Shown: positions 3,351 to 26,776 of the stretch, piece by piece | Layout of the letters: every line of letters begins with the position of its first letter | Numbering within the stretch: the stretch's first letter is position 1 | Assembly (NCBI GenBank): GCA_023435025.1 | Contig: JAEYSE010000020.1 | Coordinates: 16,189-80,188 of the forward strand | DNA: 64,000 nucleotides | From: Bacillota bacterium | GTDB lineage: Bacteria; Bacillota; Clostridia; Christensenellales; CAG-138 | Direction of reading: 5' to 3' | The notes under the pieces: model-generated | The model's input: the letters and a program-made list of their open reading frames with translations, nothing else | What the model was told of the DNA's origin: nothing | The model's database searches: none | Position numbers and translations under genes: made by a program

Positions 3351-4478
3351 CTATTCTGTAGCGGCGTATTTGAGCAGCTTGCCGGTTGCCTTGCTGTAAA
3401 CGGTAATCATACGTTCGGGTATCTGGACTCCCACCTTCTGATCGCGTTCATAGCTGGTAATACCAATTGCCTTGGCCAATAGCACCGTTGCGCCAATCTG
3501 CACCTGGACCAACGTTTCCGACCCGGCGGGCTGGCAGGCGTATACGGACCCTAAAAACGCGGTGTTCTCCGTGTTCTTGGAAACCGCGATATGCTCTGGC
3601 CGTATACCCAGTACGCAATCAAATTCGCCGGACTTCGGAAATTCGTTTCCGGTCAGGTCGCCTTGCTCAAACGCGAAGCTTCCAAGATCAGAGATCACGC
3701 GGAGTTTGCCGCCATCATGCTGCGCCTTGGCCTGCACCGTATTGATGCGCGGGTTGCCTATAAAATCCGCTATCCGAAGATCTGCAGGGTTGCTGTAGAC
3801 ATTGATTGGCGTGTCTACCTGAGCAAGCTCACCCTCAAAGAATATGGCGACACGGGTGCTCATGGTCAGTGCCTCAATTTGGTCATGGGTAACGTATATG
3901 ACTGTAGTGCCCAGCTCCTGGTGCAGGCGTTTGAGCTCGGAGCGCATATCGATGCGCAGCTTGGCATCCAGGTTAGAAAGCGGCTCGTCCAGCAGCAGGG
4001 TCTTCGGCTCGCTTACGATTGCGCGGGCAATCGCCACGCGCTGCTGCTGACCCCCGGAAAGCTCGCTCGGGTACCGGTTGACGTATTCGCCGATCTGTAA
4101 GCGCTCCAGCGCGTTTCCCACGCGCCGCTTGATCTCATCCTTTGGCACTTTTTTAATGCAAAGACCAAACGCAACATTGTCGAACACCGTCATATGCGGC
4201 CACAAAGCGTAGGATTGGAACACCAGATTCAGCCCTCGTTTGGACGGCGCTTCAAAGAACAGCTCTTCGGTGTTCACGACCTCGCGGCCGTCCATATGGA
4301 TTTTGCCTCTTTGCGGGCGCTCAAGGCCCGACACCACGCGCAGCGTGGTGGTCTTCCCGCAGCCTGAGGGGCCAAGCAGCGTCATGAACTCGCCGTCCTC
4401 AATCGTAAGATCCAGGCTTTTCAATACGTGGTTGCTTCCGTAATATTTGTCAATGCCCTGTAATACGATTTTGCTCAT
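3351..4478 (-). CDS. ABC importer ATP-binding protein (MalK/FbpC-like, with C-terminal regulatory domain), cassette 1
   Basis: Walker A GPSGCGKTT, signature LSGGQQQR, Walker B LLLDEPLSNLD, H-loop VTHDQ. Closely paralogous to 11963..13081. Confidence 0.92.
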   Translation of the reverse strand: MSKIVLQGIDKYYGSNHVLKSLDLTIEDGEFMTLLGPSGCGKTTTLRVVSGLERPQRGKIHMDGREVVNTEELFFEAPSKRGLNLVFQSYALWPHMTVFDNVAFGLCIKKVPKDEIKRRVGNALERLQIGEYVNRYPSELSGGQQQRVAIARAIVSEPKTLLLDEPLSNLDAKLRIDMRSELKRLHQELGTTVIYVTHDQIEALTMSTRVAIFFEGELAQVDTPINVYSNPADLRIADFIGNPRINTVQAKAQHDGGKLRVISDLGSFAFEQGDLTGNEFPKSGEFDCVLGIRPEHIAVSKNTENTAFLGSVYACQPAGSETLVQVQIGATVLLAKAIGITSYERDQKVGVQIPERMITVYSKATGKLLKYAATE

Positions 4479-8448: not shown

Positions 8449-9261
8449 CTATCCGGCTTGGTCCGTATAGGTACCGCGGCAGAACATCCGGGGCGCAAGC
8501 AGCAGCGTTTCCCGCTCTGCGCCTTGGCACAGGCGTTCCATCAAAGACACTGCATGGGTCTCAAGCGCAAAGCGGCCGCATCCCACGCTGGTCAGCTTGT
8601 ATTTGGACAACGATGCGAGCGAAACATCCCCGAACCCAAGAAGCGCGATGTCCCTGCCCGGCCGCAATTCCCGCTCCACAATCGCCTGCCATGCGCCAAA
8701 GGCGGTAAAATCATCCTGGGCGGCAATCACCGTGGGCATGCCTCCATCCAGAAGGCTGCGTGTCGCGCAGTAGCTATCCTGCAGTGAGTTTCCCGCAACC
8801 GCAACCGTATGGACGGCGCTGCAGGGGATGCCGCTTTTTTGCGCCCCCAGCAAAAAGCCTTTGAGAAGTTCATCATGGCAGGATGTGGGGTGAAACAGGA
8901 ACACAAGTTTTCTGTGCCCGTTTTTCATCAGGCGTTCCGCGGCCAAAGTGCCTGCTTTTTTCTCATCCATAGAAACAAAACTTATGGATGCGTGCGAGGC
9001 GTTTTGGCCAACAAATACGACGGGAACGCGCAATCCTTCATACAATGCCTTGCTTTGCGCCTGTACCGGCATGGCGAAGATGCCTGAGACATTCGCCGCA
9101 ATCAGCCCGTTTAGGAACCGGGCCTCATTTTTAAAATCCCCCTGCGCGTTACAAATCAGCAGGCAGTCCCCCCGCCTCTCCAGTTCACGCGCAATGTTTT
9201 CAGCGGTTTCCGGATAAAACGGGTTGATGTCGTCCGGAATGATCATGCCATATTGCTTCAT
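8449..9261 (-). CDS. LacI/PBP1-type sugar-binding (effector) domain protein lacking the N-terminal HTH
   Basis: The product begins MKQYGMIIPDDINPFYPE, which is the first strand of the LacI effector domain. The start ATG overlaps the HAD stop (ATGA), and the DNA upstream is HAD coding sequence, leaving no room for an HTH. Confidence 0.7.
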   Translation of the reverse strand: MKQYGMIIPDDINPFYPETAENIARELERRGDCLLICNAQGDFKNEARFLNGLIAANVSGIFAMPVQAQSKALYEGLRVPVVFVGQNASHASISFVSMDEKKAGTLAAERLMKNGHRKLVFLFHPTSCHDELLKGFLLGAQKSGIPCSAVHTVAVAGNSLQDSYCATRSLLDGGMPTVIAAQDDFTAFGAWQAIVERELRPGRDIALLGFGDVSLASLSKYKLTSVGCGRFALETHAVSLMERLCQGAERETLLLAPRMFCRGTYTDQAG

Positions 9262-10022
9262 GCCGTCTTGTTTTCCGCCTCGCGCAGCATTTTCAATATG
9301 GGATATACGTCGTAAATCTCGTTGAGCCTGTAGTCCGGCTGAACGCCGTCCGTACGGGCGTCCCGGTCCGCGGTAAGGAACGAGTCGATTTGCAGCGTAA
9401 GGCCAAACCCGGCGTTTTTGGCGCCTATGACGTCCCGGGATATGGTATCCCCGACATAGGCGCAGTTCTCGGCTTTTGCGCGCATCTGATGAAGCGCTAT
9501 CAAGAATATATTGGAGTTGGGCTTGCGGTAGCCAACTACGCTCGAAAGCGTGACGTCCTCAAAATAAGAGCGAATTCCGTATTCCTCCAGCGTCTCGAAC
9601 ACCTGAAACATGCTGGCGGTGTTGCTGATAACGCCCATCCGCATTCCCATTTCCCGCAGGCCTTCGAGCATTTCCTTTACGCCCGGGCGCATTTTGCGCG
9701 TATAATATGTGATTTCCCACATATAGGCCAGTTCCTCGGAAATGGAAGCCAGTTTCTTCTTATCCACAGGTAAAAAGGGCAAAGCGTATTCCGGCCAGAT
9801 CTGATCGGGTTTTAACTCGACACATGTTTGTTCGCCTAGGATTTTATACCGCTTCATGCCGGCAGATACTTCCGCCCAAAGCGCCGCATCGTCCATAGAC
9901 AGGCAGATGTCATACTTTTGAAGGATACGGCGTATCCCCTTTGCGGTTTCCGCCATCGTTTTTTCGTCGCTGTAGATTTCCTCGAGCGTACCGCCCATGT
10001 CGAACAAGACAGTATCGATCAT
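9258..10022 (-). CDS. HAD-superfamily hydrolase (subfamily IA-like), motif I DxGxT
   Basis: Motif I LFDMGGTL, motif II VISNT, motif III RKPN, motif IV VGDTISRDVIGAKNAGFG. RBS AAGGAG. Confidence 0.85.
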   Translation of the reverse strand: MIDTVLFDMGGTLEEIYSDEKTMAETAKGIRRILQKYDICLSMDDAALWAEVSAGMKRYKILGEQTCVELKPDQIWPEYALPFLPVDKKKLASISEELAYMWEITYYTRKMRPGVKEMLEGLREMGMRMGVISNTASMFQVFETLEEYGIRSYFEDVTLSSVVGYRKPNSNIFLIALHQMRAKAENCAYVGDTISRDVIGAKNAGFGLTLQIDSFLTADRDARTDGVQPDYRLNEIYDVYPILKMLREAENKTA

Positions 10023-15000: not shown

Positions 15001-15783
15001 TTAGTGGCTTTCATTACGATGGCTTTCATTATAGGACCGGATAATGCCGATAACCTCCGGCAGCGCTTTTATGGTATAGTCCGGCTGGTAGCCGCACCCT
15101 TCAAGCTTGCGTTCACGTTCCAGCACATGCGGCTTTGCTTCGCTGAACAATATGCGTATCATCAGGCCCCATCCCGCGTTCTTTACGCCGATGACGTCCC
15201 GTGAAATGGTATCTCCCACATAGGCCATTTCCTCGGCCTTCAAACCCATGGAATTCCTGCAAAGATCGAATATTCGCCTGTCCGGCTTTCTCAGTCCGCA
15301 TACGCTGGATAGGAGTATATACTCAAAGTAGCCGGAAACGCCGTATTCCTGCAGGAAATGAGGCGCATACGTCCTCGAAAGCGTGTTGCTGAGTATGGCC
15401 AAGCGCATGCCCTGCTCTCGTAGACCCTGCAGGCACTCGTGCAGGCCCTCTCGCGGAGCGTCTTGCGCGTGGTTACACCAAAGAAAGCTTAAGTCCTCTG
15501 AAATGGGGAACAGCTGCTCTGTTGTCGCGCCATAATCCTTTAAAAAGAAGTTACGCCATGCCTCAAGCGGGGGGATTTCCTCTACCAGTTGTTCGGAAGC
15601 ACGCTTGCGGGCATGGTCGGCTTCCGAGAGTTTTAAGGCGAAAGTCTCGACTGGGTCGGGTATGCGAACTCCTCGGAGCTCAAGAAGATTTTTGATCTTT
15701 CTCGCACAGAGAAGGTGTCGTTTCGGGTCTTCTGTCAATGTGTGAATGACGCCGCCCATATCAAATACAACTGCCTGAATCAA
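15001..15783 (-). CDS. HAD-superfamily hydrolase, motif I DxGxV; first gene of the long operon
   Basis: VVFDMGGVIHTL, ILSNT, RKPD, VGDTISRDVIGVKNAGWG. Preferred start is the TTG at 15783 (RBS AAGGCGGG, 8-nt spacer). The track ORF extends to a TTG at 15855 that has no RBS. Confidence 0.8.
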   Translation of the reverse strand: MIQAVVFDMGGVIHTLTEDPKRHLLCARKIKNLLELRGVRIPDPVETFALKLSEADHARKRASEQLVEEIPPLEAWRNFFLKDYGATTEQLFPISEDLSFLWCNHAQDAPREGLHECLQGLREQGMRLAILSNTLSRTYAPHFLQEYGVSGYFEYILLSSVCGLRKPDRRIFDLCRNSMGLKAEEMAYVGDTISRDVIGVKNAGWGLMIRILFSEAKPHVLERERKLEGCGYQPDYTIKALPEVIGIIRSYNESHRNESH

Positions 15784-16180: not shown

Positions 16181-17938
16181 TTACCGAATTTCAAACTGCG
16201 AAGCGTACAGGCTTGCATACATGCCTCCAGCCCGCAAAAGGTCCTCATGCTTGCCCTGTTCCACGATCCGCCCATGGTCCATCACAAGTATCAGATCCGC
16301 GCGCTCAATTGTAGAAAGCCTATGTGCGATGACAAAGCATGTCTTTCCATGCATCAGCTTTTTCATCGCTTCGTTGATTTCAATCTCAGTCGCAGTATCC
16401 ACATTGGAGGTCGCCTCGTCCAGTATCAGCATGCTGGCGTCCAGCAGCATGGCGCGGGCGATGGTCAAAAGCTGCTTCTGGCCTTTTGATATATTGAGGC
16501 TGTCATCGGAAAGCAGGGTATCATATCCGTCGGGCAGCGACATGATGAAATTGTGGATTTTCGCGGCCTTTGCGGCCTCCTGCACGCGCGCTAATGTGGC
16601 GTTCTCGCTCCCATAAGCGAGGTTCTCGTAAATGGTCCCATAAAACAGCCACGTATCCTGTAGCACCATGGCATAGGCCCGCCGCAGCTGCTTGCGGGCC
16701 ATGTCACGCACATCGCTGCCGTCCACCAATATGCGCCCGCCGCTCACGTCATAAAACCGCATCAACAGGTTTACGATTGTCGTCTTGCCCGCGCCCGTGG
16801 GGCCCACAATTGCAGTTAAGGTGCCGCTTTTTACGTCCGCCGTCAAATCGTGCAGGATGTCGATATCCTGCTCATACCCGAACTTCACATGCTGCAGATT
16901 GATATCCCCTTGGGGGGAAAACGGAGCATCTTCCGCTGTTTCACCCGTCGGCTCCGGCTCCTCGTCAATCAGCCGGAACACCCGCTGTGCTGCGGCCACC
17001 GCCGCTTGTATTTCTGTAATAATATTTGCCGCCTCGCGAATCGGCCCAGAAAACTTGCGCGAATATAGAATGAATGAGGAGATATTGCCCAAAGAGATGC
17101 TGCCGGCAATATAAAGGAGCGCCCCAAACACGCTGATAAACGACAGCGACATGTTGTTGATGAAATTGACCAAAGGTCCCAAAATCCTACTTTCATAATC
17201 CGCCCGGTAGTTCGCTTCTATCGCCGCGTCGTTGCGCTCGCGGAACCGCTCGATCTGTTCTGCCTCCCTGCCGTAGGCGCGAATGGTCCTTTGGCCGGAA
17301 ATGCTTTCTTCCACGAACCCGTTGAGTTTGCCCAGCTTTTCCGAACGGAGCAGGTACAAGGGATGCTGCCGCTTGACCTGTCGCCCCGTAAACAGCATGG
17401 TAAGGGGAACCGCCGCTAAGAACACGCAGGAAAGCAGCGGGGAAATAACGAGCAGCATGATAAAGGATCCAACGACCGTTACCACCGAGGTGCAGACCTG
17501 CATGAGATCGGTGGAAAGCGACGAGTTGATTGTGTCGATATCGAAACAGACGCGGCTGATAATATCCCCCGACGGATGCGTATCGAAGTATTTCACCGGC
17601 AGATCCACCAGTTTGTGGAACACATCCTTGCGCAGCTCATAGGAAACCTGTTGGCTTAAATTGATCAGGCCCACCGAGAGCCAATAGGAAAGCGTTGAGG
17701 AAAGCGCGAAGCAAATTACCATCAGGCCGCAGTTTAGGAAGATACGGGAAAAGTCAACATTGCCTGATGTTATGCCTATGGCGTCCACGGCGCGGCCGGA
17801 CAGAAACGGAATAGCGAGCTCAAGCGCATTGGCGGCAAGCATGGCCACAAAGAGCAGAATCAGCCTACCGCGCTTGGTTTTTAAGTACTTCCACAGCCTT
17901 TTAAGGGTTGCAAATATGCCGCTAAGCCGTTCTTTCAT
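16181..17938 (-). CDS. ABC exporter, fused TMD-NBD half-transporter (consensus ATPase site)
   Basis: Six-helix N-terminal domain. GPTGAGKTT, ISKGQKQL, LILDEATSNVD, FVIAHRLST. 4-bp start/stop overlap with the upstream partner. Confidence 0.88.
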   Translation of the reverse strand: MKERLSGIFATLKRLWKYLKTKRGRLILLFVAMLAANALELAIPFLSGRAVDAIGITSGNVDFSRIFLNCGLMVICFALSSTLSYWLSVGLINLSQQVSYELRKDVFHKLVDLPVKYFDTHPSGDIISRVCFDIDTINSSLSTDLMQVCTSVVTVVGSFIMLLVISPLLSCVFLAAVPLTMLFTGRQVKRQHPLYLLRSEKLGKLNGFVEESISGQRTIRAYGREAEQIERFRERNDAAIEANYRADYESRILGPLVNFINNMSLSFISVFGALLYIAGSISLGNISSFILYSRKFSGPIREAANIITEIQAAVAAAQRVFRLIDEEPEPTGETAEDAPFSPQGDINLQHVKFGYEQDIDILHDLTADVKSGTLTAIVGPTGAGKTTIVNLLMRFYDVSGGRILVDGSDVRDMARKQLRRAYAMVLQDTWLFYGTIYENLAYGSENATLARVQEAAKAAKIHNFIMSLPDGYDTLLSDDSLNISKGQKQLLTIARAMLLDASMLILDEATSNVDTATEIEINEAMKKLMHGKTCFVIAHRLSTIERADLILVMDHGRIVEQGKHEDLLRAGGMYASLYASQFEIR

Positions 17939-19647
17939 ATCGCCGCCCCTCCCATCTGCACCTGCGCGATCTTTCGGTAGCTTTCGCAGGTGTCCATCAG
18001 GTGCCTGTGGGTTCCGGCTCCTTCAATTTGCCCGTCCGCGAGCACCAGGATGTGGTCGGCGTTGCATACGGAGCTGATCCGCTCCGAGATAATCACCGTT
18101 GTTGTGTCGCTGTATTCCCCGCTGATGGCGGCGCGCAGCAGGGCGTCCGTACGGTAATCGAGCGCGCTTTCAGCGTCGTCCAATATCAATATTTCCGGGG
18201 TTCCGGCTAACGCCCGGGCGATTAAAAGCCGCTGCTTCTGGCCGCCGCTCAAATTCGCCCCCCGGATATCGATCATGTGATTGTAACCGCCGGAAAGCCC
18301 CAGTATAAACTCCTCCGCCTGCGCGGCGCGGGCGGCTTTTTCCACCTCCGCTTGCGGGATATTGCGCATAAAGGAGATGTTTTCGTATACGCTGTCGTTC
18401 AAAAGCACGTCGTTCTGGAACACTACGCCAAAACGGCCGGACAGCTCGCTTTGGGGAATACCGCTTATAAGATCCCCGCCTATCCGGATGCTTCCGCCCT
18501 GCGCTTCATAAAGCCGCATCAACAGGCTCACTAGCGTCGTCTTTCCGCTTCCGGTGGGGCCGATGATGCCAAGCGTCTCCCCTCGTTTGACACAGAAGGA
18601 AATGCCCGTGAGATCATTTTGCTTGCCATTATACGAAAAGCTGACGTCGTCAAAACGGATGTGGCAGTCATCGTCCACATGCGCTCGGTTTCCCGTCGCT
18701 TTGGCTTCGTCCTTTAATAGTACTTCCTCCACGCGGTTCATGGAGGCGCTGCCCCTGGACCAGATGGCGAACATTTTTGTAATGGAAAGCGCCGCGTTGA
18801 TGACGATTGTATAGTATGAAAGAAAGGCGATGATTTTGCCCACCTGCATCAGCCCCGCCTGCACGCGGTACGCGCCTACCAGGATTACCAGCGTCAGCCC
18901 GATGTTCAGAATAAGGCTCATCATCGGGTTGGTAGAGGCCACAACCCGCCCCGCCTTTTTTTCAATGTCCGCAACGCCCTCGTTTACTTTGGCGAACCTT
19001 TGCTTTTCATAACCTGTCTTTGAGAGCGCCTTAATAACACGCACCCCCACCGCGTTTTCGCGTAAGATGCGAACCAAGCCCTCAATTTTTTGCTGCGCCT
19101 CGCGATAAAGCGGGGTGCTCCTTTTATACACCCACCGGATCAGAACGATCAAAGCCGGGGTCATCAGAAGCTGTATGAGCGCCATTGCGGGCTCCATCGT
19201 AAAGGAAAGCGTAATCCCTCCCACGATCAAAAGCGGCGTGCGGACCCCCAGGCGCTGCATCCTGTCTAGCAGCGTATGGATATTGTACGTATCGTTGGTG
19301 AGTCTGGATATCAAAGAAGGTAGCGCGAACCGGTTCATATCCGGAAAGGACAGGCGGGAGATCTTTGCAAACAGGTCAAAGCGGAGTTCCCTCGTAATAT
19401 CGCGGGATACCTTGGCCGCCATGCGGTTTGCCCAGACATTGAAGGAAAATGCGATTCCCGCGCAGATAGCCATCAGCCCGCCATACAGATATACCGCTTT
19501 GACGTCCTTGACTGGTACGACCTCATCAATCACGTAAGCAAGCAGCCACGGCAATACCAGATCCATCATTGTGCCGATAAACTTAATGAGCAGGCCAAAG
19601 GACATCCTGCCGATAAAAGGTTTTAAATACTGGCGGACAATATGCAT
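17935..19647 (-). CDS. ABC exporter, fused TMD-NBD half-transporter (degenerate ATPase site)
   Basis: GPTGSGKTT, LSGGQKQR, but Walker B is ILILDDAESALD (catalytic Glu replaced by Asp) and the H-loop reads VIISERISS (no His). Confidence 0.85.
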   Translation of the reverse strand: MHIVRQYLKPFIGRMSFGLLIKFIGTMMDLVLPWLLAYVIDEVVPVKDVKAVYLYGGLMAICAGIAFSFNVWANRMAAKVSRDITRELRFDLFAKISRLSFPDMNRFALPSLISRLTNDTYNIHTLLDRMQRLGVRTPLLIVGGITLSFTMEPAMALIQLLMTPALIVLIRWVYKRSTPLYREAQQKIEGLVRILRENAVGVRVIKALSKTGYEKQRFAKVNEGVADIEKKAGRVVASTNPMMSLILNIGLTLVILVGAYRVQAGLMQVGKIIAFLSYYTIVINAALSITKMFAIWSRGSASMNRVEEVLLKDEAKATGNRAHVDDDCHIRFDDVSFSYNGKQNDLTGISFCVKRGETLGIIGPTGSGKTTLVSLLMRLYEAQGGSIRIGGDLISGIPQSELSGRFGVVFQNDVLLNDSVYENISFMRNIPQAEVEKAARAAQAEEFILGLSGGYNHMIDIRGANLSGGQKQRLLIARALAGTPEILILDDAESALDYRTDALLRAAISGEYSDTTTVIISERISSVCNADHILVLADGQIEGAGTHRHLMDTCESYRKIAQVQMGGAAI

Positions 19648-19898: not shown

Positions 19899-20789
19899 TC
19901 AGCCTTGATAAAATTCGTCGATATAAGCTTTCACCTGTTCGCGCGTACCCAGGAACGGCCCGGGCGTTTCCATCTTGAGCGATACCAAGGCCGAGGCCCA
20001 CAGCAGCGCCTCCGGAATATCCGCATACAGGCGTTCCGTGATATATCCGGAAAAGCAGGTATCCCCCCGGCCCGTGCGGCCAATCAGACTGCGCGGCTTC
20101 AACGGACAGGTATAGACTTTTTTTCCATCGTATACGAGCACTTCGGTGTTATGGGTAATCATGACCTCCTGCGCGCCCCATGCGTAGAGCTGCTTGGCGG
20201 CCTGTTCCCGGTCGGTCATGCCGGTCATTATTTCCGCCTCCGCGGCGTCCATCTTTAAAAAGCGGATCATGGGGAGGTAGGTAAGCTTCTCTTCCCAATC
20301 ATGGAACACCATGGTGCCATTTTCCTCGCACCTTAGCAGACATTGTACATCCACGGCAGCCATAGCCTTTTTTGCTGCGTAGGCGATGATTTCATTTCCT
20401 AAATCCCCCCGCATCAGACCGGCAATGTGATAGATGCTCGCGTCCACTTCTGGGATCTCGTTTACCGCGTACGGCTCTATGCGGCTGAGCATGGTGCAGG
20501 TACGCCTTTCACGGTCAGCGGTGTGGTAGACGTTTTGAATGGAGGTGCTGTGCGTGCTGTTAAGCGGGAAAACAGTGACGTTCTTTGCCCCTGAAAACAG
20601 GTTGTCTAAGTCCATATCAGCCTTGCTCGCCTTGGGTAGCGCTGCAACCGTTCGCCCCATGCCCGACGCCGCAAAGCCGGAGAATACAACCGCCCCGCCG
20701 ATCGCGCGAAGGGTTACGCCGTCATAATCCGTGTTGACGTCCAAACTGGGCTGGCCCAGAATGAATGTGTCGAATTTCTTTTTCCCCAT
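19899..20789 (-). CDS. PfkB-family carbohydrate/small-molecule kinase
   Basis: N-terminal ILGQPSLDV and the C-terminal anion-hole region GRTGRGDTCFSGY typical of the ribokinase/PfkB fold. Abuts the PHP gene with no gap. Confidence 0.75.
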   Translation of the reverse strand: MGKKKFDTFILGQPSLDVNTDYDGVTLRAIGGAVVFSGFAASGMGRTVAALPKASKADMDLDNLFSGAKNVTVFPLNSTHSTSIQNVYHTADRERRTCTMLSRIEPYAVNEIPEVDASIYHIAGLMRGDLGNEIIAYAAKKAMAAVDVQCLLRCEENGTMVFHDWEEKLTYLPMIRFLKMDAAEAEIMTGMTDREQAAKQLYAWGAQEVMITHNTEVLVYDGKKVYTCPLKPRSLIGRTGRGDTCFSGYITERLYADIPEALLWASALVSLKMETPGPFLGTREQVKAYIDEFYQG

Positions 20790-21518
20790 CTAATTCCTAC
20801 CTCCAAAATAGGCGTTGCACTTTGCAATCAAATGCTGAAATTCGTCGCTATGCACGCGGTATGCTCTTTGTTGCACCGCGCGCTTATAATCGAAGGAGTC
20901 AGAAAGCCGCGCGTCAAACACCATTGCCGCGCGCCCTTCATCACCCGGACGGTGCGTATCGGAGCTGCAGGTCCTAAGCAGATGAGGGTTTTCCATGCAA
21001 AGCGCGAGCGCCTGATCATTGCCGTTTTCATGGCGGGGGCTGCAGTTGATGTATTCAATCCCGTGTACGCAATCATAATGGATAAGGCCGTGCTGCTTCC
21101 GGAACGGGTGCGCGTGTATGATCAAAACCTCGTTTTTGAACGTTTGATAAAAGTCATGCGGGTCCATGCGATACGGGTAGGGGTTGCGTTTGAGAAACGC
21201 CTCGTCTATGCCGTACACCAGGTAATCGTTGTTGCTGTCCTGTTCAAAACGCAATTCAGCTCCCAGAAGCACGTCAAACCCCAATTCGGCCCCTCTTTGC
21301 TTCGCGGTTTTGTAACCAAGGAGGAACCGGTCCACGCACGCGTCCCAATCATCGTTGCAGTCTAGCGAGGAAATGTAAGTTTCGTGCAGGTGGTCCGTCA
21401 CAATAAATCCGGCGTAGCCCTTCTCATGGTACGTTTCCACCAGTGTTTTTGCGGCTATCCTTCCGCAGTGGCTGGTTTCCAGGGTATGGACGTGCGGGTC
21501 GTACAAGTATTCTTTCAT
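20790..21518 (-). CDS. PHP-domain phosphoesterase (histidinol-phosphatase-like fold)
   Basis: N-terminal DPHVHTLETSHC metal motif, TDH, IHAHP, SSDTHRPGDEG. Confidence 0.7.
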   Translation of the reverse strand: MKEYLYDPHVHTLETSHCGRIAAKTLVETYHEKGYAGFIVTDHLHETYISSLDCNDDWDACVDRFLLGYKTAKQRGAELGFDVLLGAELRFEQDSNNDYLVYGIDEAFLKRNPYPYRMDPHDFYQTFKNEVLIIHAHPFRKQHGLIHYDCVHGIEYINCSPRHENGNDQALALCMENPHLLRTCSSDTHRPGDEGRAAMVFDARLSDSFDYKRAVQQRAYRVHSDEFQHLIAKCNAYFGGRN

Positions 21519-21537: not shown

Positions 21538-22545
21538 TTATACCAACGAAATACAGGATTTACGCTTGATCAGCGTGGGCAACAGGATCTGATGCGAGTA
21601 ACCGAGCGACGGATTGCGGAGCTTTTCCAGCATCATATCCACCGCGATCGCCGCCATTGTCATTTTGGGCTGCTCGATCGTGGTAAGGTTGATTTTGGGA
21701 AGGCCCGTAAAATGGATATTGTCGAACCCGAGCAGTGAGAGATCCTCGGGTATCCGTACGCCGCATTCGTCGGCTGCCTGAAGCACCCCCAAAGCGTTGG
21801 AGTCCGTGGACGCGAATATGGCGGTATAGTCAAAGCGGCTTGCAAACAGCTGCTTGGCCAGGGCGTAGCCGTTCTGTATGGAGCTTGCCATGTACGGGCT
21901 GTTGAAAAAGCACGGCGTAATCTTATAATCGCGGCATGCGTCGCTGTATCCGTCCGAGCGCAGCTGGTGGGTGTTGCTGCCTTTGCGGTATCCAAAGTAC
22001 AGGATGTTCCTGTGCCCCAGGGAATACAGGTATTCCGTGCCGATATACGTACCCCGGTAATTATCTACGGCCACATAGCTTTCCGGCGCGTCCCGCAGGT
22101 TTTCGCTGACAAACACGGTGGGCACCTTGTTCAGATACTTTTTCAGGCGGCCATACGTATCGATGCTGGAGGGGACGATGATAATGCCGTCTACCTGCCT
22201 GCCCATCAGCAGCTCAAACACCTGCTCCTCCTGAGCTAAGTCGTTAGAGGAGTTACACAGCATGATGTTGTAACCGCGTGCCCGCGCGTTCAGCTCAATA
22301 TGGTACGCGATCTCGGACATAAACGGATTTTCTATGCTGGTTACGATTAGCCCGATGAGCTTTGTGCGTTTCATCACCATGGAACGGGCCACGAAATTGG
22401 TGGTATAGCCCATTTCCTTGCAAATCTTCACAATGCGCTCGCGAGTTTCGGTGCTGATCTCGGGGCTGTTGGACAGCGCGCGCGAAACGGTGGCATAGGA
22501 CACATTCGCAACCTTGGCAATGTCCTTAATTGTGACGTTTTTCAT
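21538..22545 (-). CDS. LacI-family transcriptional regulator (full length, with HTH)
   Basis: MKNVTIKDIAKVANVSYATVSRALSNSP HTH followed by a PBP1 effector domain (IGLIVTSIENPF...). Confidence 0.9.
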   Translation of the reverse strand: MKNVTIKDIAKVANVSYATVSRALSNSPEISTETRERIVKICKEMGYTTNFVARSMVMKRTKLIGLIVTSIENPFMSEIAYHIELNARARGYNIMLCNSSNDLAQEEQVFELLMGRQVDGIIIVPSSIDTYGRLKKYLNKVPTVFVSENLRDAPESYVAVDNYRGTYIGTEYLYSLGHRNILYFGYRKGSNTHQLRSDGYSDACRDYKITPCFFNSPYMASSIQNGYALAKQLFASRFDYTAIFASTDSNALGVLQAADECGVRIPEDLSLLGFDNIHFTGLPKINLTTIEQPKMTMAAIAVDMMLEKLRNPSLGYSHQILLPTLIKRKSCISLV

Positions 22546-22564: not shown

Positions 22565-22578
22565 TGCAAACGTTTTCG
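22565..22578. promoter_or_regulatory. LacI-family operator-like site TGCAAACGTTTTCG (autoregulatory position)
   Basis: Imperfect palindrome (10 of 14 positions symmetric) located 8 nt downstream of the -10 and just upstream of the lacI RBS. Confidence 0.55.
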
Positions 22579-22723: not shown

Positions 22724-24289
22724 TTAGATATATTGCGTTCCTCCACCCCGTACAAGCGCCGCATATACCTTTTCGATTTTCGCGTAATTTCCGTCCCGAT
22801 CCAAGGCCAGTCCGCGTCCCACGCCGTCCACAATCTGCCCCGTACCGATTTTGGTGATTTGCGTTTCAAGCTCTTCAAGCAGTTTGGGCGCGCTGCCCGG
22901 CTCGGTGCTGCGTCCATCAAATATGATATGCACATATACCTTGGGCAGGTCCTTGGCCATTTGCAGCAGCGCAAGCGGATAGTCTATGGAGCCGTGGGAG
23001 GATTTTTTGGTCAGCAGGGCGAGTAAATGCAAAGCGGCCCCATTTTTTCTGACACGATCGATTGCGTTTAGGAACACCTCGTTTTGCAAAAAGGAGCCGT
23101 CCTTCATGGCTTGGTCCAGCCGGATATCATCCTGCTGCACGATCCTGCCTGCCCCGATGTTGGAGTGACCCGCCTCCGAATTGCCGGGCTTGCCTTCCTG
23201 CAAACCTACCGCCTCGCCTGAAGCGCGCAGCCGGGAGGGCGTATAGTCGGCGTTGAGCCGATCCCATACGGGGGTCTCCGCCAAATAGATGGGGTTGGTG
23301 TTGTCTTGCTTTCCAATACCCCACCCATCCAGAATAATGAGCAGCAGCTTACGGTCTTTGCCAAAATCATGCCCGGCAGCAAGGCTTACGCCCGTCATGC
23401 CTGCGGGCTGCGGAATGCGGAGTACTTGCAATGCTGTAGGCGCGACGTCTGAAAGGTTCCCGTTCGAAAGCGCGATGGGAGCGTCCGAATCCGGGTCGAT
23501 CAAAAAAAAGGAAACGAGGTTCGACGTATGCGCCACATGCGGCTTGCCTTCGGGTGTGCACATTTCCTCCAGGTTGCCGTGGTCGGCGGTAATGGCGGTT
23601 ACATAGCCATGCCGCTTAGCCGCTTCTAGCACACGCCCCAGGTGGTAATCCACATGCGCGGCGCACTCTATTTTCGCCTTTTCATTGGAGGTATGCCCGA
23701 TCACGTCCCCGTTCGCGAAATTGACCACGATCCATTCGCGCCCATCCTCCAACCCTTTTATAACCGTATCGGCCACCTCGGGCAGGCGCAACGCTGGGAC
23801 TTGGTAAAAAGGAATGCCCTTGGGCGAGGGGATGCAGACGTCGTCTTCGCCGGGGAACGGCACATTGTTCCCGCCGTTTAAAAAGAACGTCACATGGGCG
23901 TATTTTTCGGACTCCGCGCAGTGCAACTGCCTAAGCCCCGACTTACTTACCGTTTCCGCCAACGTATCCTTCCCGCGTGTCGGTGCGAAAGCGATGGGCA
24001 GATCCTTGTACTTTTCGTGGTACATGGTCAGTATGACAAATGAAAGGTCCGAATAGCGTTCCCGTTCAAAATGCGGAAACTCCGCGGCTGTGAACGCGTC
24101 CGTCAGCTCAATCTCCCGTTCGCCGCGGCGGCAGCAGAATATGACCGCGTCGCCGTCGCGGACGCGACCGATTGCGTTGCCTTCTTCATCCACGCGAACC
24201 AGCGGCTCCATGGAATAATCGGCCTGGCCACGGGCATAGGCGTCCCTGACTGCATTCGCTAAGGCTACTCCGCCGTATTCCCCATGCAT
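22724..24289 (-). CDS. Circularly permuted cofactor-independent phosphoglycerate-mutase-like enzyme (alkaline phosphatase superfamily)
   Basis: All iPGM motifs are present but in the order C-terminal half then N-terminal half: ESEKYAHVTFFLNGG, NGDVIGHT, TADHGN, VAHTSN, IPQPAGMTG, linker, IILDGWG, GNSEAGHSNIGAGRIV, FDGRS, LDRDGNYAKIEKVY. Start set at the ATG at 24289 (RBS AAGGAGG, 7-nt spacer). Confidence 0.85.
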   Translation of the reverse strand: MHGEYGGVALANAVRDAYARGQADYSMEPLVRVDEEGNAIGRVRDGDAVIFCCRRGEREIELTDAFTAAEFPHFERERYSDLSFVILTMYHEKYKDLPIAFAPTRGKDTLAETVSKSGLRQLHCAESEKYAHVTFFLNGGNNVPFPGEDDVCIPSPKGIPFYQVPALRLPEVADTVIKGLEDGREWIVVNFANGDVIGHTSNEKAKIECAAHVDYHLGRVLEAAKRHGYVTAITADHGNLEEMCTPEGKPHVAHTSNLVSFFLIDPDSDAPIALSNGNLSDVAPTALQVLRIPQPAGMTGVSLAAGHDFGKDRKLLLIILDGWGIGKQDNTNPIYLAETPVWDRLNADYTPSRLRASGEAVGLQEGKPGNSEAGHSNIGAGRIVQQDDIRLDQAMKDGSFLQNEVFLNAIDRVRKNGAALHLLALLTKKSSHGSIDYPLALLQMAKDLPKVYVHIIFDGRSTEPGSAPKLLEELETQITKIGTGQIVDGVGRGLALDRDGNYAKIEKVYAALVRGGGTQYI

Positions 24290-24308
24290 ACCGGCACCTC
24301 CTTTATGC

Positions 24309-25067
24309 TTATTTCTTTGCGGTGCCTGCCTCAAGGCAGACACTCGGTGCCTTCGGGAATATATCCAGCAGTTGCCGGATGTCGCTTATGATGATGTCAG
24401 GCCTGTTCTCGTCGGTGATGATTTCTCTGGAGGGGTTATCGGGGTAATCGATACCTACATTCAGCCCGAATCCAGCGGATTTTGCGCCAATGATATCGCG
24501 GGCGTAATTGTCCCCCACGCAAGCGCAAAGCGCTGGCGGTACGTTTGCCTCTTCCACCGCCTGCAAATAGATTGCGGGGTCCGGCTTGCGAATGCATGTC
24601 ACGGAGGACAGCACCACGGTCTTGAAATAATGCTCCAGCCCATCTTCCTTGAGCCAATCCTGGATTTCATGGCAGCCGATGAGGTTGCTGATAATTCCCA
24701 GCGTGTAGCCCCGTTTGTACAGCGTGTCTATGACCTCCACGCCGCCATCAATAACGTACCGCTTGCCTTTGGCCTGGCGGTACTGGTACGTAAGCTCCGG
24801 GGCGTTCGCGGCAATGCGCTCCGCCGGGTATTCGGGGGCCAGCCAGCGAGTCCAGAGCTCGGCTTCCGGCGCTTCACGATTGGTATCAATCGCCCAGTCA
24901 CGGTATTTGTCATAGCGCTGGTCGATCAACTTGTGGAACTGCTTTGGGTCCATATCTGTGCCGACCAGCTCCGCGATTTTAGACATTGCGTTATACTGAT
25001 GCTCCGGCTCCTTGCGCAGGATGCGAAGCGTGCCGCCAAGATCAAAGAATATACCCTGAATATCCAT
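24309..25067 (-). CDS. HAD-superfamily hydrolase, motif I DxGxT (tandem paralog 3 of 3)
   Basis: IFFDLGGTL, IISNL, RKPD, VGDNYARDIIGAKSAGFG. RBS GGGAGGAG. Confidence 0.85.
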   Translation of the reverse strand: MDIQGIFFDLGGTLRILRKEPEHQYNAMSKIAELVGTDMDPKQFHKLIDQRYDKYRDWAIDTNREAPEAELWTRWLAPEYPAERIAANAPELTYQYRQAKGKRYVIDGGVEVIDTLYKRGYTLGIISNLIGCHEIQDWLKEDGLEHYFKTVVLSSVTCIRKPDPAIYLQAVEEANVPPALCACVGDNYARDIIGAKSAGFGLNVGIDYPDNPSREIITDENRPDIIISDIRQLLDIFPKAPSVCLEAGTAKK

Positions 25068-25088
25068 GGTTCTCCTCCCTATATCCGT

Positions 25089-25835
25089 CTATATTGCCGC
25101 TTCTAAATTGCGCGGCGGGAACATAGTCAGCAGTTCGGCAAGATCGTATAGTACGGCGTCCGGCTCGCACCCTTCGGGCGCGGGCTTTAAAGTCTTCCCG
25201 GGTTCCACAAACAACAGGAAAGCGCCAAAGCCTGCGGCTTTTGTGCCTGCGACATCGCGCTTGACGTTATCCCCCACGTATACACAGCGTTCGGGCGATA
25301 TTCCCACCTCCCGCGCGGCCATACGGTGCATCTCCGGGTCGGGTTTGCGGATGCCGCATACCGCTGAAAGCAGAACGGACTTGAAATATGGGGTCAGTCC
25401 GTCCGCCTCCAGCCAATCCGGAATCTCCTTTGAGGTGATCAAGTTGCTGATAATGCCCAAGGTATATCCCCTCAGGTGCAGTTCGCGGATGACCTCCGCG
25501 CCATGCTCGGCAACCACCCGCCGCCCCTTGGCATTGCGGTAGTGGATTGTTAGCTCCACGGCGGCGGCAGCAACGCTGTCCTTCGGAAATTCCGGCGCAA
25601 GCCACCGCGTCCAAAGTTCAGACTCGGGCGCTTCCTTCATTTCTTCAAACGCCCATTTGCGGTAATCCAGATACCGTTCATCCAGAAGGGCGCAGAACGC
25701 CTTGGGTTCCGCATCGGTGTTTAGCAGCCGTGTGATGTTCCGTAGGGCGTCGTTTTGGAACGCCTCGTCCTCCACTAAAAGGCGAAGCGTGCCGCCGAGG
25801 TCAAAAAATATCGCATCGAAGTTTTCCGTATTCAT
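25089..25835 (-). CDS. HAD-superfamily hydrolase, motif I DxGxT (tandem paralog 2 of 3)
   Basis: IFFDLGGTL, IISNL, RKPD, VGDNVKRDVAGTKAAGFG. ATGA overlap with the upstream paralog. Confidence 0.85.
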   Translation of the reverse strand: MNTENFDAIFFDLGGTLRLLVEDEAFQNDALRNITRLLNTDAEPKAFCALLDERYLDYRKWAFEEMKEAPESELWTRWLAPEFPKDSVAAAAVELTIHYRNAKGRRVVAEHGAEVIRELHLRGYTLGIISNLITSKEIPDWLEADGLTPYFKSVLLSAVCGIRKPDPEMHRMAAREVGISPERCVYVGDNVKRDVAGTKAAGFGAFLLFVEPGKTLKPAPEGCEPDAVLYDLAELLTMFPPRNLEAAI

Positions 25836-26587
25836 GCATTATCTCCCTGCGTCGCCTTTATGCGGGAAGGAAACAGGCCAAGAAGCTCCGAAATTTCGTC
25901 TATTGTATGGTCCAGCGGAAAGTCCGCCGACTGCGGCTCGTTTTTGAGCGTAGCCGGTTCGTTGATGAGTATCATTTTCGCAAAGCCGGACGCGCGCGTA
26001 CCCTCCGTATCGCGTATGGGATTGTCTCCCACATAGGCACACTGAGCGGGTATGGAGCCGATCGTACGGGCGGCAAGCAGGTAGATCTCAGGATCTGGCT
26101 TGCGGAGCCTGACCTTTGAGGAGAGTATCACGGTGCGGAAGCAGCTTGCCACGCCGTCCGCAATCATCCAGTCCGGTATTTCGGTTTCCGTGATGGTATT
26201 TGCAATAATGCCCAGCTTGTAACCGCGCCGGACCAGTTCTTGTAGCGTCGCCTTGACGTCGTGCCTTGGAATGCGTCTGCCGTCATGGTCACGCCAAAGC
26301 CGCGTAAGCCGCCCGGCATTTGCCGTAATCAGCTCGGCAGGATAATCCGGAAGCAGCCAGAACGTCCAAAGCTCCATTTCCGAAGCTTCCAGCATACTGC
26401 GCTTGCTTTGCTTGCGGTATGCGTCCCATCTGCTTTCCAGCTTGCTGAAAAAAGCGTCGTGGGGCTCCGTTGCTCCTACGAGCCGCATCAGCTCGTGTTC
26501 CGCCGCAGCCTGAAACGGCGCGTCCTTTACAACGATTCTCAGGGTGTTGCCAACATCAAAGAATATGGTGTCGATCTCCGGCTTCAT
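25832..26587 (-). CDS. HAD-superfamily hydrolase, motif I DxGxT (tandem paralog 1 of 3)
   Basis: IFFDVGNTL, IIANT, RKPD, VGDNPIRDTEGTRASGFA. RBS CAGGAGGG. Confidence 0.85.
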   Translation of the reverse strand: MKPEIDTIFFDVGNTLRIVVKDAPFQAAAEHELMRLVGATEPHDAFFSKLESRWDAYRKQSKRSMLEASEMELWTFWLLPDYPAELITANAGRLTRLWRDHDGRRIPRHDVKATLQELVRRGYKLGIIANTITETEIPDWMIADGVASCFRTVILSSKVRLRKPDPEIYLLAARTIGSIPAQCAYVGDNPIRDTEGTRASGFAKMILINEPATLKNEPQSADFPLDHTIDEISELLGLFPSRIKATQGDNA

Positions 26588-26691
26588 AACGCCCTCCTGC
26601 AGAATGGAATTTTATAACACTTATTTCGGTTTTTGTGTCTATTTATGAGGGTTTTTGCCGTTTAAGTGGATTCGTAGCCTTCCAGACTGAC

Positions 26692-26705
26692 CGCAAACGT
26701 TTGCG
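26692..26705. promoter_or_regulatory. LacI-family operator, perfect 14-bp palindrome CGCAAACGTTTGCG
   Basis: Perfect dyad in the 5' leader of the HAD-HAD-HAD-iPGM-like operon, about 105 nt upstream of the first start codon. Confidence 0.6.
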
Positions 26706-26747
26706 CTGAATGTCAAAAAAATAAAGCTATATGGAATTGATATGCTT

Positions 26748-26776
26748 ATACTAGTCACAAAAAAACCTTTTGTCAA
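26748..26776 (-). promoter_or_regulatory. Candidate sigma-A promoter of the HAD/iPGM-like operon
   Basis: On the minus strand: TTGACA (26776-26771), 17-nt spacer, TAGTAT (26753-26748). Confidence 0.45.

Follow-up and report, generated by a model that had tools for sequence, protein, structure and literature searches.

The window analysed here is a stretch of 64,000 nucleotides from a Bacillota bacterium of the CAG-138 lineage (Clostridia; contig JAEYSE010000020.1, positions 16,189 to 80,188), in an assembly of 3.17 Mb that is 92% complete. It carries five genes of the HAD superfamily whose products have Gly in place of the Asp that normally stands two residues after the nucleophile of motif I (Asp+2). 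Three of these genes stand in tandem ahead of a circularly permuted member of the iPGM family, and the other two lie among ABC importer genes. A preliminary description of this DNA had placed all five genes by position, and open reading frames are indeed present at each place on the minus strand. It had also put a single promoter and operator ahead of the three tandem HAD genes and the iPGM-like gene, which agrees with the one promoter-like site and one palindrome that precede HAD1. The genes and signals are given below; the orthogroups are the clades of the tree described further on.

25832-26587, minus: HAD1, 251 aa, motif I FDVGNTL, orthogroup A, motif II Ser replaced by Ala (GIIANT)
25089-25835, minus: HAD2, 248 aa, motif I FDLGGTL, orthogroup B (Bacillota duplicate)
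24309-25067, minus: HAD3, 252 aa, motif I FDLGGTL, orthogroup B, mutase-proximal copy
9258-10022, minus: HAD4, motif I FDMGGTL, orthogroup C, between two importer cassettes
15001-15783, minus: HAD5, motif I FDMGGVI, orthogroup C, first gene of importer operon 2
22724-24289, minus: circularly permuted iPGM-family gene, last gene of the putative operon; reading frame open from 24343, likely start ATG 24289, behind AAGGAGG
26748-26776, minus: sigma-70-like promoter ahead of HAD1, TTGACA-17-TAGTAT, 10 of 12 consensus positions, a consensus match only
26692-26705, between promoter and HAD1: perfect 14-bp palindrome CGCAAACGTTTGCG, LacI-family operator-like, read directly

The five HADs belong to one family. 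All match the Pfam entries HAD_2, Hydrolase and Hydrolase_like; HAD2, HAD3, HAD4 and HAD5 are 42, 40, 26 and 28% identical to HAD1, respectively, and HAD2 and HAD3 are ~50% identical to each other. The earlier view of them as mutual paralogues of one unusual subfamily holds, as the five score 213-348 bits on a family profile and the assembly contains no further copy at E ≤ 1e-5; on that profile the best of its other HADs reaches 30 bits, and the two that rank next carry the canonical motifs DLDGV and DMDGV. An unrelated 220-aa HAD on the assembly's contig C124 (reading frame near 4147, minus) has the motif DFNGT, in which Asn occupies Asp+2. Homologues of HAD3 number more than 2000, many of them 55-60% identical and from Anaerolineae and Clostridia, and a search of 1.84 billion representatives gave 174 representative clusters for the family at E ≤ 1e-30. 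An AlphaFold2 model of HAD3 (pLDDT 93.7) has a Rossmannoid core with an inserted C1 helical cap, and its Foldseek matches are HAD-IA structures only, all generic neighbours. The family is a conserved HAD-IA group with a C1 (four-helix) cap and the hallmark motif I D-x-G-(N/G)-T. The cap string ELWTRWLAPE, previously ascribed to three copies, recurs letter for letter in HAD2 and HAD3; in HAD1 it reads ELWTFWLLPD, and HAD4 and HAD5 retain only its invariant Glu and Trp.

Replacement of Asp+2 by Gly, noticed at the outset as D-x-G-(G/N)-(T/V), is true of all five copies and extends throughout the family. Among the best 120 homologues of HAD3, 113 have D-x-G, mostly as DLGNT and otherwise as DVGNT or DLGGT. 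We collected 193 HAD open reading frames from 80 genome loci, which with the five window copies make 198 sequences, and not one of the 198 has Asp at +2; among representatives with a readable N-terminus, the residue is Gly in 117/127 and Asp in 1/127. Gly at this position is a family-wide hallmark and no local oddity. In HAD enzymes, it is the backbone carbonyl of residue +2 that binds Mg2+ (PMC10541634). Gly keeps this role, and only the side chain is gone.

A tree built from the 198 sequences has three clades, and membership tracks gene position:

Clade A, 71 sequences: HAD1; DVGNT; second upstream of the mutase in Anaerolineae, third in Clostridia
Clade B, 88 sequences: HAD2 and HAD3; DLGNT or DLGGT; directly upstream of the mutase (69 loci)
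Clade C, 21 sequences: HAD4 and HAD5; DMGGT-like; near the importer

The HAD-A/HAD-B/permuted-iPGM block is conserved in Anaerolineae and Clostridia. Other Clostridia loci, several of them in Oscillospiraceae, repeat the window's fuller order of HAD5-type gene, HAD1, HAD2, HAD3 and mutase together with a divergent lacI-PHP-pfkB unit. HAD2 and HAD3 fall in a clade of 25 sequences (support 99) that is entirely from Bacillota and in which, apart from the window, nine loci are represented twice; theirs is a lineage-specific duplication, and the only one among the five copies. Only 5 sites are conserved but different between clades A and B, so that their divergence consists mostly of positions conserved in one clade only. 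The preliminary description had read the five copies as subfunctionalised on related substrates. Its functional half fits the data, since separately conserved orthogroups with different cap signatures are what different specificities on related substrates would produce; the implied local burst does not, as A, B and C are old lineages present in two phyla.

The catalytic residues are otherwise those of a HAD phosphotransferase, with one departure. In the numbering of HAD3, which is used throughout, each of the three clades conserves Asp9, Gly11, Thr13, Lys161, Asp186 and Asp191 at 95-100%. The motif I nucleophile Asp is present in the five window copies and in 100% of each clade, and both R-K-P, with the motif III Lys, and G-D-(N/T)-x3-R-D, with the motif IV acidic pair, are 100% conserved. 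HAD2-5 and all members of clades B and C have the motif II Ser; in clade A, all 71 members have Ala instead, followed two residues on by an invariant Thr. Two catalytic motifs of orthogroup A therefore deviate from the HAD consensus. All members of the three clades carry an acidic residue, Glu or Asp, at position 65, and Trp72 does not vary. The AlphaFold2 model places residue 65 in the loop joining cap helices 41-62 and 68-76, which by topology we take to be the substrate-specificity loop of C1-capped HADs such as beta-PGM and phosphonatase. This invariant acidic cap residue, Glu65, is a candidate substitute for the missing acid/base. The preliminary description had said that its case would suffer if a compensating acid/base turned up together with a well-characterised orthologue for each copy: Glu65 is a candidate for the former, and we found no characterised orthologue of the family. 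Arg15, Arg56, Arg97 and Arg103 are common to clades A and B at 98-100%, and clade C is without most of them. This shared Arg set makes the pocket look basic and suggests that the ligand of A and B is strongly anionic and that of C, where most of the set is missing, less so.

The tandem genes are tightly packed. HAD1 and HAD2 overlap by ATGA, the 21-nucleotide gap between HAD2 and HAD3 carries GGGAGGAG, and the 19-nucleotide gap between HAD3 and the mutase, given the start at ATG 24289, carries AAGGAGG. Terminator-like signals inside the block are at chance level (10 found versus 8.8 expected). Because of the overlaps, the ribosome-binding sites, the single promoter/operator and a gene order kept elsewhere, HAD1, HAD2, HAD3 and the permuted mutase look like one LacI-controlled operon.

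Association with the mutase is close to strict. A permuted-iPGM homologue stands beside the HAD in 77/80 loci and in 47/47 loci of at least 18 kb, and 44/47 of the latter have an Afu/Fbp-type fused permease. The locus is also present in Levilinea saccharolytica KIBI-1, which is in culture (locus L062). In Anaerolineae, the loci further contain an aPGM with a score above its cut-off, two PRK-like kinases and RpiR (38-39 of 39 loci); those of Bacillota contain a PHP protein (7/8) and a PfkB kinase (5/8). The window has the Bacillota set:

22565-22578, ahead of lacI: CGAAAACGTTTGCA, resembling CGCAAACGTTTGCG
21538-22545, minus: full-length LacI-family regulator with its own promoter and operator-like site
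20790-21518, minus: PHP-domain phosphoesterase, co-conserved with the HAD block in 7/8 Bacillota loci
19899-20789, minus: PfkB-family kinase, TM0415 homologue

A second promoter-like site precedes lacI, together with the CGAAAACGTTTGCA site. A PDB sequence search with the PHP protein returned no relative. Two ABC exporter-type genes with fused membrane and ATPase domains occupy 16181-19647 (minus), between HAD5 and pfkB; a comparable pair adjoins the importer in the closest relative, L004.

The permuted mutase retains the iPGM residues Asp12, Ser62, His123, Arg153, Arg185, Arg191, Arg261, Arg264 and Lys336 together with the metal ligands. Its SDGGVHSH motif is rebuilt to TKKSSHGS, and Asp154 is replaced by Ser. 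No canonical iPGM, aPGM or dPGM scores above cut-off in this 92%-complete assembly, which is probably an assembly gap. A canonical iPGM is present in six genus relatives, and canonical and permuted forms occur together in several relatives. The permuted form is therefore an accessory enzyme, and we discarded the idea that it serves as the housekeeping phosphoglycerate mutase.

Named HAD families approach this one only at a distance. The best NCBIfam matches are TIGR02253 (CTE7; 74-119 bits against a cut-off of 169.75) and TIGR02252 (REG-2-like; 63-84 against 155.2), both below cut-off, and the best PDB matches are PH0459 (1X42), PH1655 (2HOQ) and human HDHD3 (3K1Z), at ~22-27% identity. These three structures share the Rossmannoid core, the four-helix C1 cap (Foldseek TM 0.6-0.68) and a G-D-x4-D type motif IV with the family, whereas profile alignments to most PDB relatives cover the core only, from about residue 106, and leave the cap unshared. 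PH1655, unlike the family, has Asp+2 (DLDDT). To our knowledge, neither these subfamilies nor PH0459, PH1655 or HDHD3 have an established physiological substrate. The L-2-haloacid dehalogenase model TIGR01428 scores 31-43 bits against a cut-off of 125.4, and the family keeps the motif IV Asp residues; the beta-phosphoglucomutase model TIGR01990 scores 24-36 bits against 189.4, and Asp+2 is missing from the family. P-type ATPases (DKTGT) and PhnX (DxAGT) are HAD-fold phosphoaspartyl enzymes without Asp+2, in which acid/base function or water activation comes from another domain, by the TGES Glu in the ATPases and a cap Lys in PhnX. They offer a model for the role of Glu65, by analogy only and with no specific sequence relationship.

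YihX of E. coli had been cited in the preliminary description as a true phosphatase without Asp+2, and both parts of that statement check out: the E. coli K-12 record reads DLGNV, and the enzyme acts on glucose 1-phosphate with a kcat of ~10 per second, is Mg-dependent and prefers the anomeric phosphate 565-fold over Glc6P (PMC4251788). It shares Gly at Asp+2 with the family, but it has a DD-type motif IV, 200 aa, a smaller cap and neither mutase nor importer context. Kinship between the two was considered and rejected: hhalign gives 93% probability with 23% identity over 97 core columns only, leaving the cap and motif I region unaligned. The YihX-type glucose-1-phosphatase model NF006991 matches only HAD4 and HAD5, at 31-39 bits against a cut-off of 295. 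By these comparisons YihX is an analogy to the family and not a relative.

The surroundings of the block point to inositol. IolM, IolN and IolO are encoded on the same contig just upstream of the window (C77:12128-15353), so that a Thermotoga-type inositol pathway abuts the importer operons. A LacI paralogue, 61% identical to that of the window, is divergent from this operon (C77:10733-15353), and the IolM and IolN encoded there are 88-89% identical, and IolO 63% identical, to their L004 counterparts. In L004, the HADs have as direct neighbours UxaE, IolM and IolN (the latter two above NCBIfam cut-offs) and an IolO-like gene. Homologues of IolM, IolN, IolO and TM0415 from the Thermotoga maritima operon TM0411-TM0416 (IolM, IolN, IolG, TM0415, IolO) thus flank the HADs here and in relatives. 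The T. maritima pathway starts from free myo-inositol and, as far as we know, uses neither HADs nor iPGM-like enzymes; relative to that operon, the HAD/mutase/importer block has been added. The PDB relatives of the window's PfkB protein (19899-20789) are limited to TM0415 (E 1.7e-38) and one further PfkB-domain entry, 7E4L. TM0415 itself is a myo-inositol kinase that depends on pyrophosphate as donor, and the Km of this kinase type for inositol is 12 mM (PMC5931981). The window protein retains four of five pyrophosphate-signature residues (K171, R229, R232 and M266, with F221 replaced by Leu) and is probably a pyrophosphate-dependent inositol-type kinase. A PfkB paralogue, 76% identical, is encoded on contig C90.

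Domain fusions carry the same association. In at least eight representative clusters, a family HAD is fused to a xylose-isomerase-like TIM barrel in proteins of ~560-575 aa, and for the five barrels checked against NCBIfam the nearest named families are IolO and IolE. One representative fuses a family HAD to a PhoU-like (PhoU_div/DUF47) domain, and there are several HAD-HAD fusions (fusion proteins P0151, P0153, P0157, P0169, P0173, P0179, P0180, P0226, P0182 and P0158). Elsewhere in the assembly, a second cluster (C7:7865-19902) contains UxaE, a LarA-type putative hexonate epimerase, a D-mannonate oxidoreductase-like SDR, Gnd and PfkB kinases. It matches the operon divergent from the HAD block in Anaerolineae and suggests a route from tagaturonate through fructuronate, mannonate and gluconate to 6-phosphogluconate.

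From this context we favour, with confidence that is evenly balanced, a reading in which the HADs are predicted Mg-dependent phosphomonoesterases of distinct specificities for imported inositol phosphates or phosphorylated derivatives of inositol. They would act inside the cell on compounds brought in by the neighbouring Afu/Fbp-type ABC importers, with the orthogroups dealing with different phosphate positions or phosphorylation states. The permuted mutase may reposition phosphates, and the inositol set free would feed into the neighbouring IolM/IolN/IolO pathway. Asp9 would be the nucleophile, the Gly11 backbone carbonyl and Asp186 would hold Mg2+, and Thr13, Ser127 and Lys161 would hold the phosphate. 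We speculate that proton transfer, in place of Asp+2, may come from the cap-loop Glu65 or from a neighbouring anionic group of the substrate. Phytate breakdown is a possible supply of such substrates; in cultures of the gut phytate degrader Mitsuokella jalaludinii, Ins(2)P and inositol accumulate while phytate is broken down (PMC7618129).

Several observations weigh against this reading. The kinases at the locus, TM0415-like here and PRK-like in Anaerolineae, fit poorly with simple phosphate stripping, and the activity of HAD1-type proteins is uncertain because they have neither Asp+2 nor the motif II Ser. Most phosphoglycerate-binding arginines are kept in the permuted mutase, which leaves a phospho-hydroxyacid substrate in play. 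A PDB sequence search with the importer binding protein gave no relative that would point to its ligand, and the putative operon is supported by sequence only.

The retained mutase residues are also the starting point for a rather unlikely alternative, in which phosphorylated inositol is oxidised and ring-opened first and the HADs dephosphorylate the resulting open-chain or inosose intermediates (phospho-5-keto-gluconate, phospho-hexonates or phosphoglycerate-like acids). Those residues would bind a 2/3-phospho-hydroxyacid; the aPGM and PRK-like kinases of the Anaerolineae loci are in keeping with it, as are the fusions to IolO/IolE-like TIM barrels, which act after ring oxidation, and a substrate carboxylate beside the phosphoester could stand in for Asp+2. 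However, the Thermotoga-type pathway is not known to have phosphorylated intermediates of this kind, the mutase pocket has been rebuilt (TKKSSHGS for SDGGVHSH, and Asp154 to Ser), and the importer belongs to the conserved core, which suggests that the phosphorylated compound comes from outside. A smaller probability attaches to the HADs being phosphotransferases or mutases, which in the absence of an acid/base would form a long-lived aspartyl-phosphate and, with the permuted mutase and pyrophosphate- or ATP-linked kinases, move and conserve phosphoryl groups. P-type ATPases likewise hold their phospho-enzyme until a separate Glu is delivered, the HADs are paired with the mutase in 77/80 loci and with kinases, and pyrophosphate is the donor of the TM0415-type kinase, whose Km for inositol is 12 mM. 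Against this, known HAD mutases such as beta-PGM require Asp+2, a conserved cap Glu could activate water, and YihX is a plain hydrolase despite the missing Asp+2 (PMC4251788).

It is similarly improbable that the HADs are ordinary promiscuous sugar-phosphate phosphatases in which Gly at +2 is meaningless and no substrate logic is shared with the mutase and importers. HAD-IA enzymes are frequently promiscuous, and the five copies match many phosphatase families in NCBIfam, all at sub-threshold scores; yet 55-60% identity across phyla with many invariant cap residues, a strict gene order with the permuted mutase in two phyla, orthogroups that track gene position and the existence of domain fusions all speak against it. 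Least probable of all is chemistry other than phosphoryl transfer, either dehalogenase-like C-X hydrolysis, as in L-2-haloacid dehalogenase, or a non-catalytic binding role. PH0459 and 2-haloacid dehalogenases are among the best structural matches, dehalogenases are likewise without Asp+2, and HAD1-type proteins are also without the motif II Ser, but the nucleophile, the Lys and the motif IV acidic pair G-D-N-x3-R-D, which binds Mg2+ in phosphotransferases, are all 100% conserved, TIGR01428 scores far under its cut-off at 31-43 bits, and all neighbours are phosphate-handling or inositol enzymes.

Returning to inositol phosphates as substrates, a more far-reaching form of this reading can be put forward tentatively. 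The family may be a new HAD-fold class of intracellular inositol-polyphosphate phosphatases that serves an import-then-dephosphorylate route for phytate-derived inositol phosphates in anaerobes, with position-specific paralogues, a cap Glu or substrate assistance in place of Asp+2, and a permuted iPGM that shifts resistant phosphates such as the axial 2-phosphate. In a bolder version, phosphoryl groups would be partly conserved rather than hydrolysed, together with the pyrophosphate-dependent kinase. Literature searches found no published description of the HAD family or of a HAD/importer inositol phosphate route, and a paper on phytate cross-feeding makes no mention of HAD, mutase or ABC importer. 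Much organic phosphorus in feed, gut contents, soils and digesters is present as phytate and lower inositol phosphates, and the known bacterial routes to phytate run through extracellular breakdown by four or five known phytase folds. If the proposal is true, phytase-type enzymes would gain a new structural class in these HADs. The family is conserved from Anaerolineae to Clostridia (55-60% identity), and its tie to an importer, a permuted mutase and inositol genes points to an undescribed intracellular route. Moreover, the family offers a clean test of HAD catalysis without the general acid/base residue, and a testable context for many database entries that now read "HAD family hydrolase."

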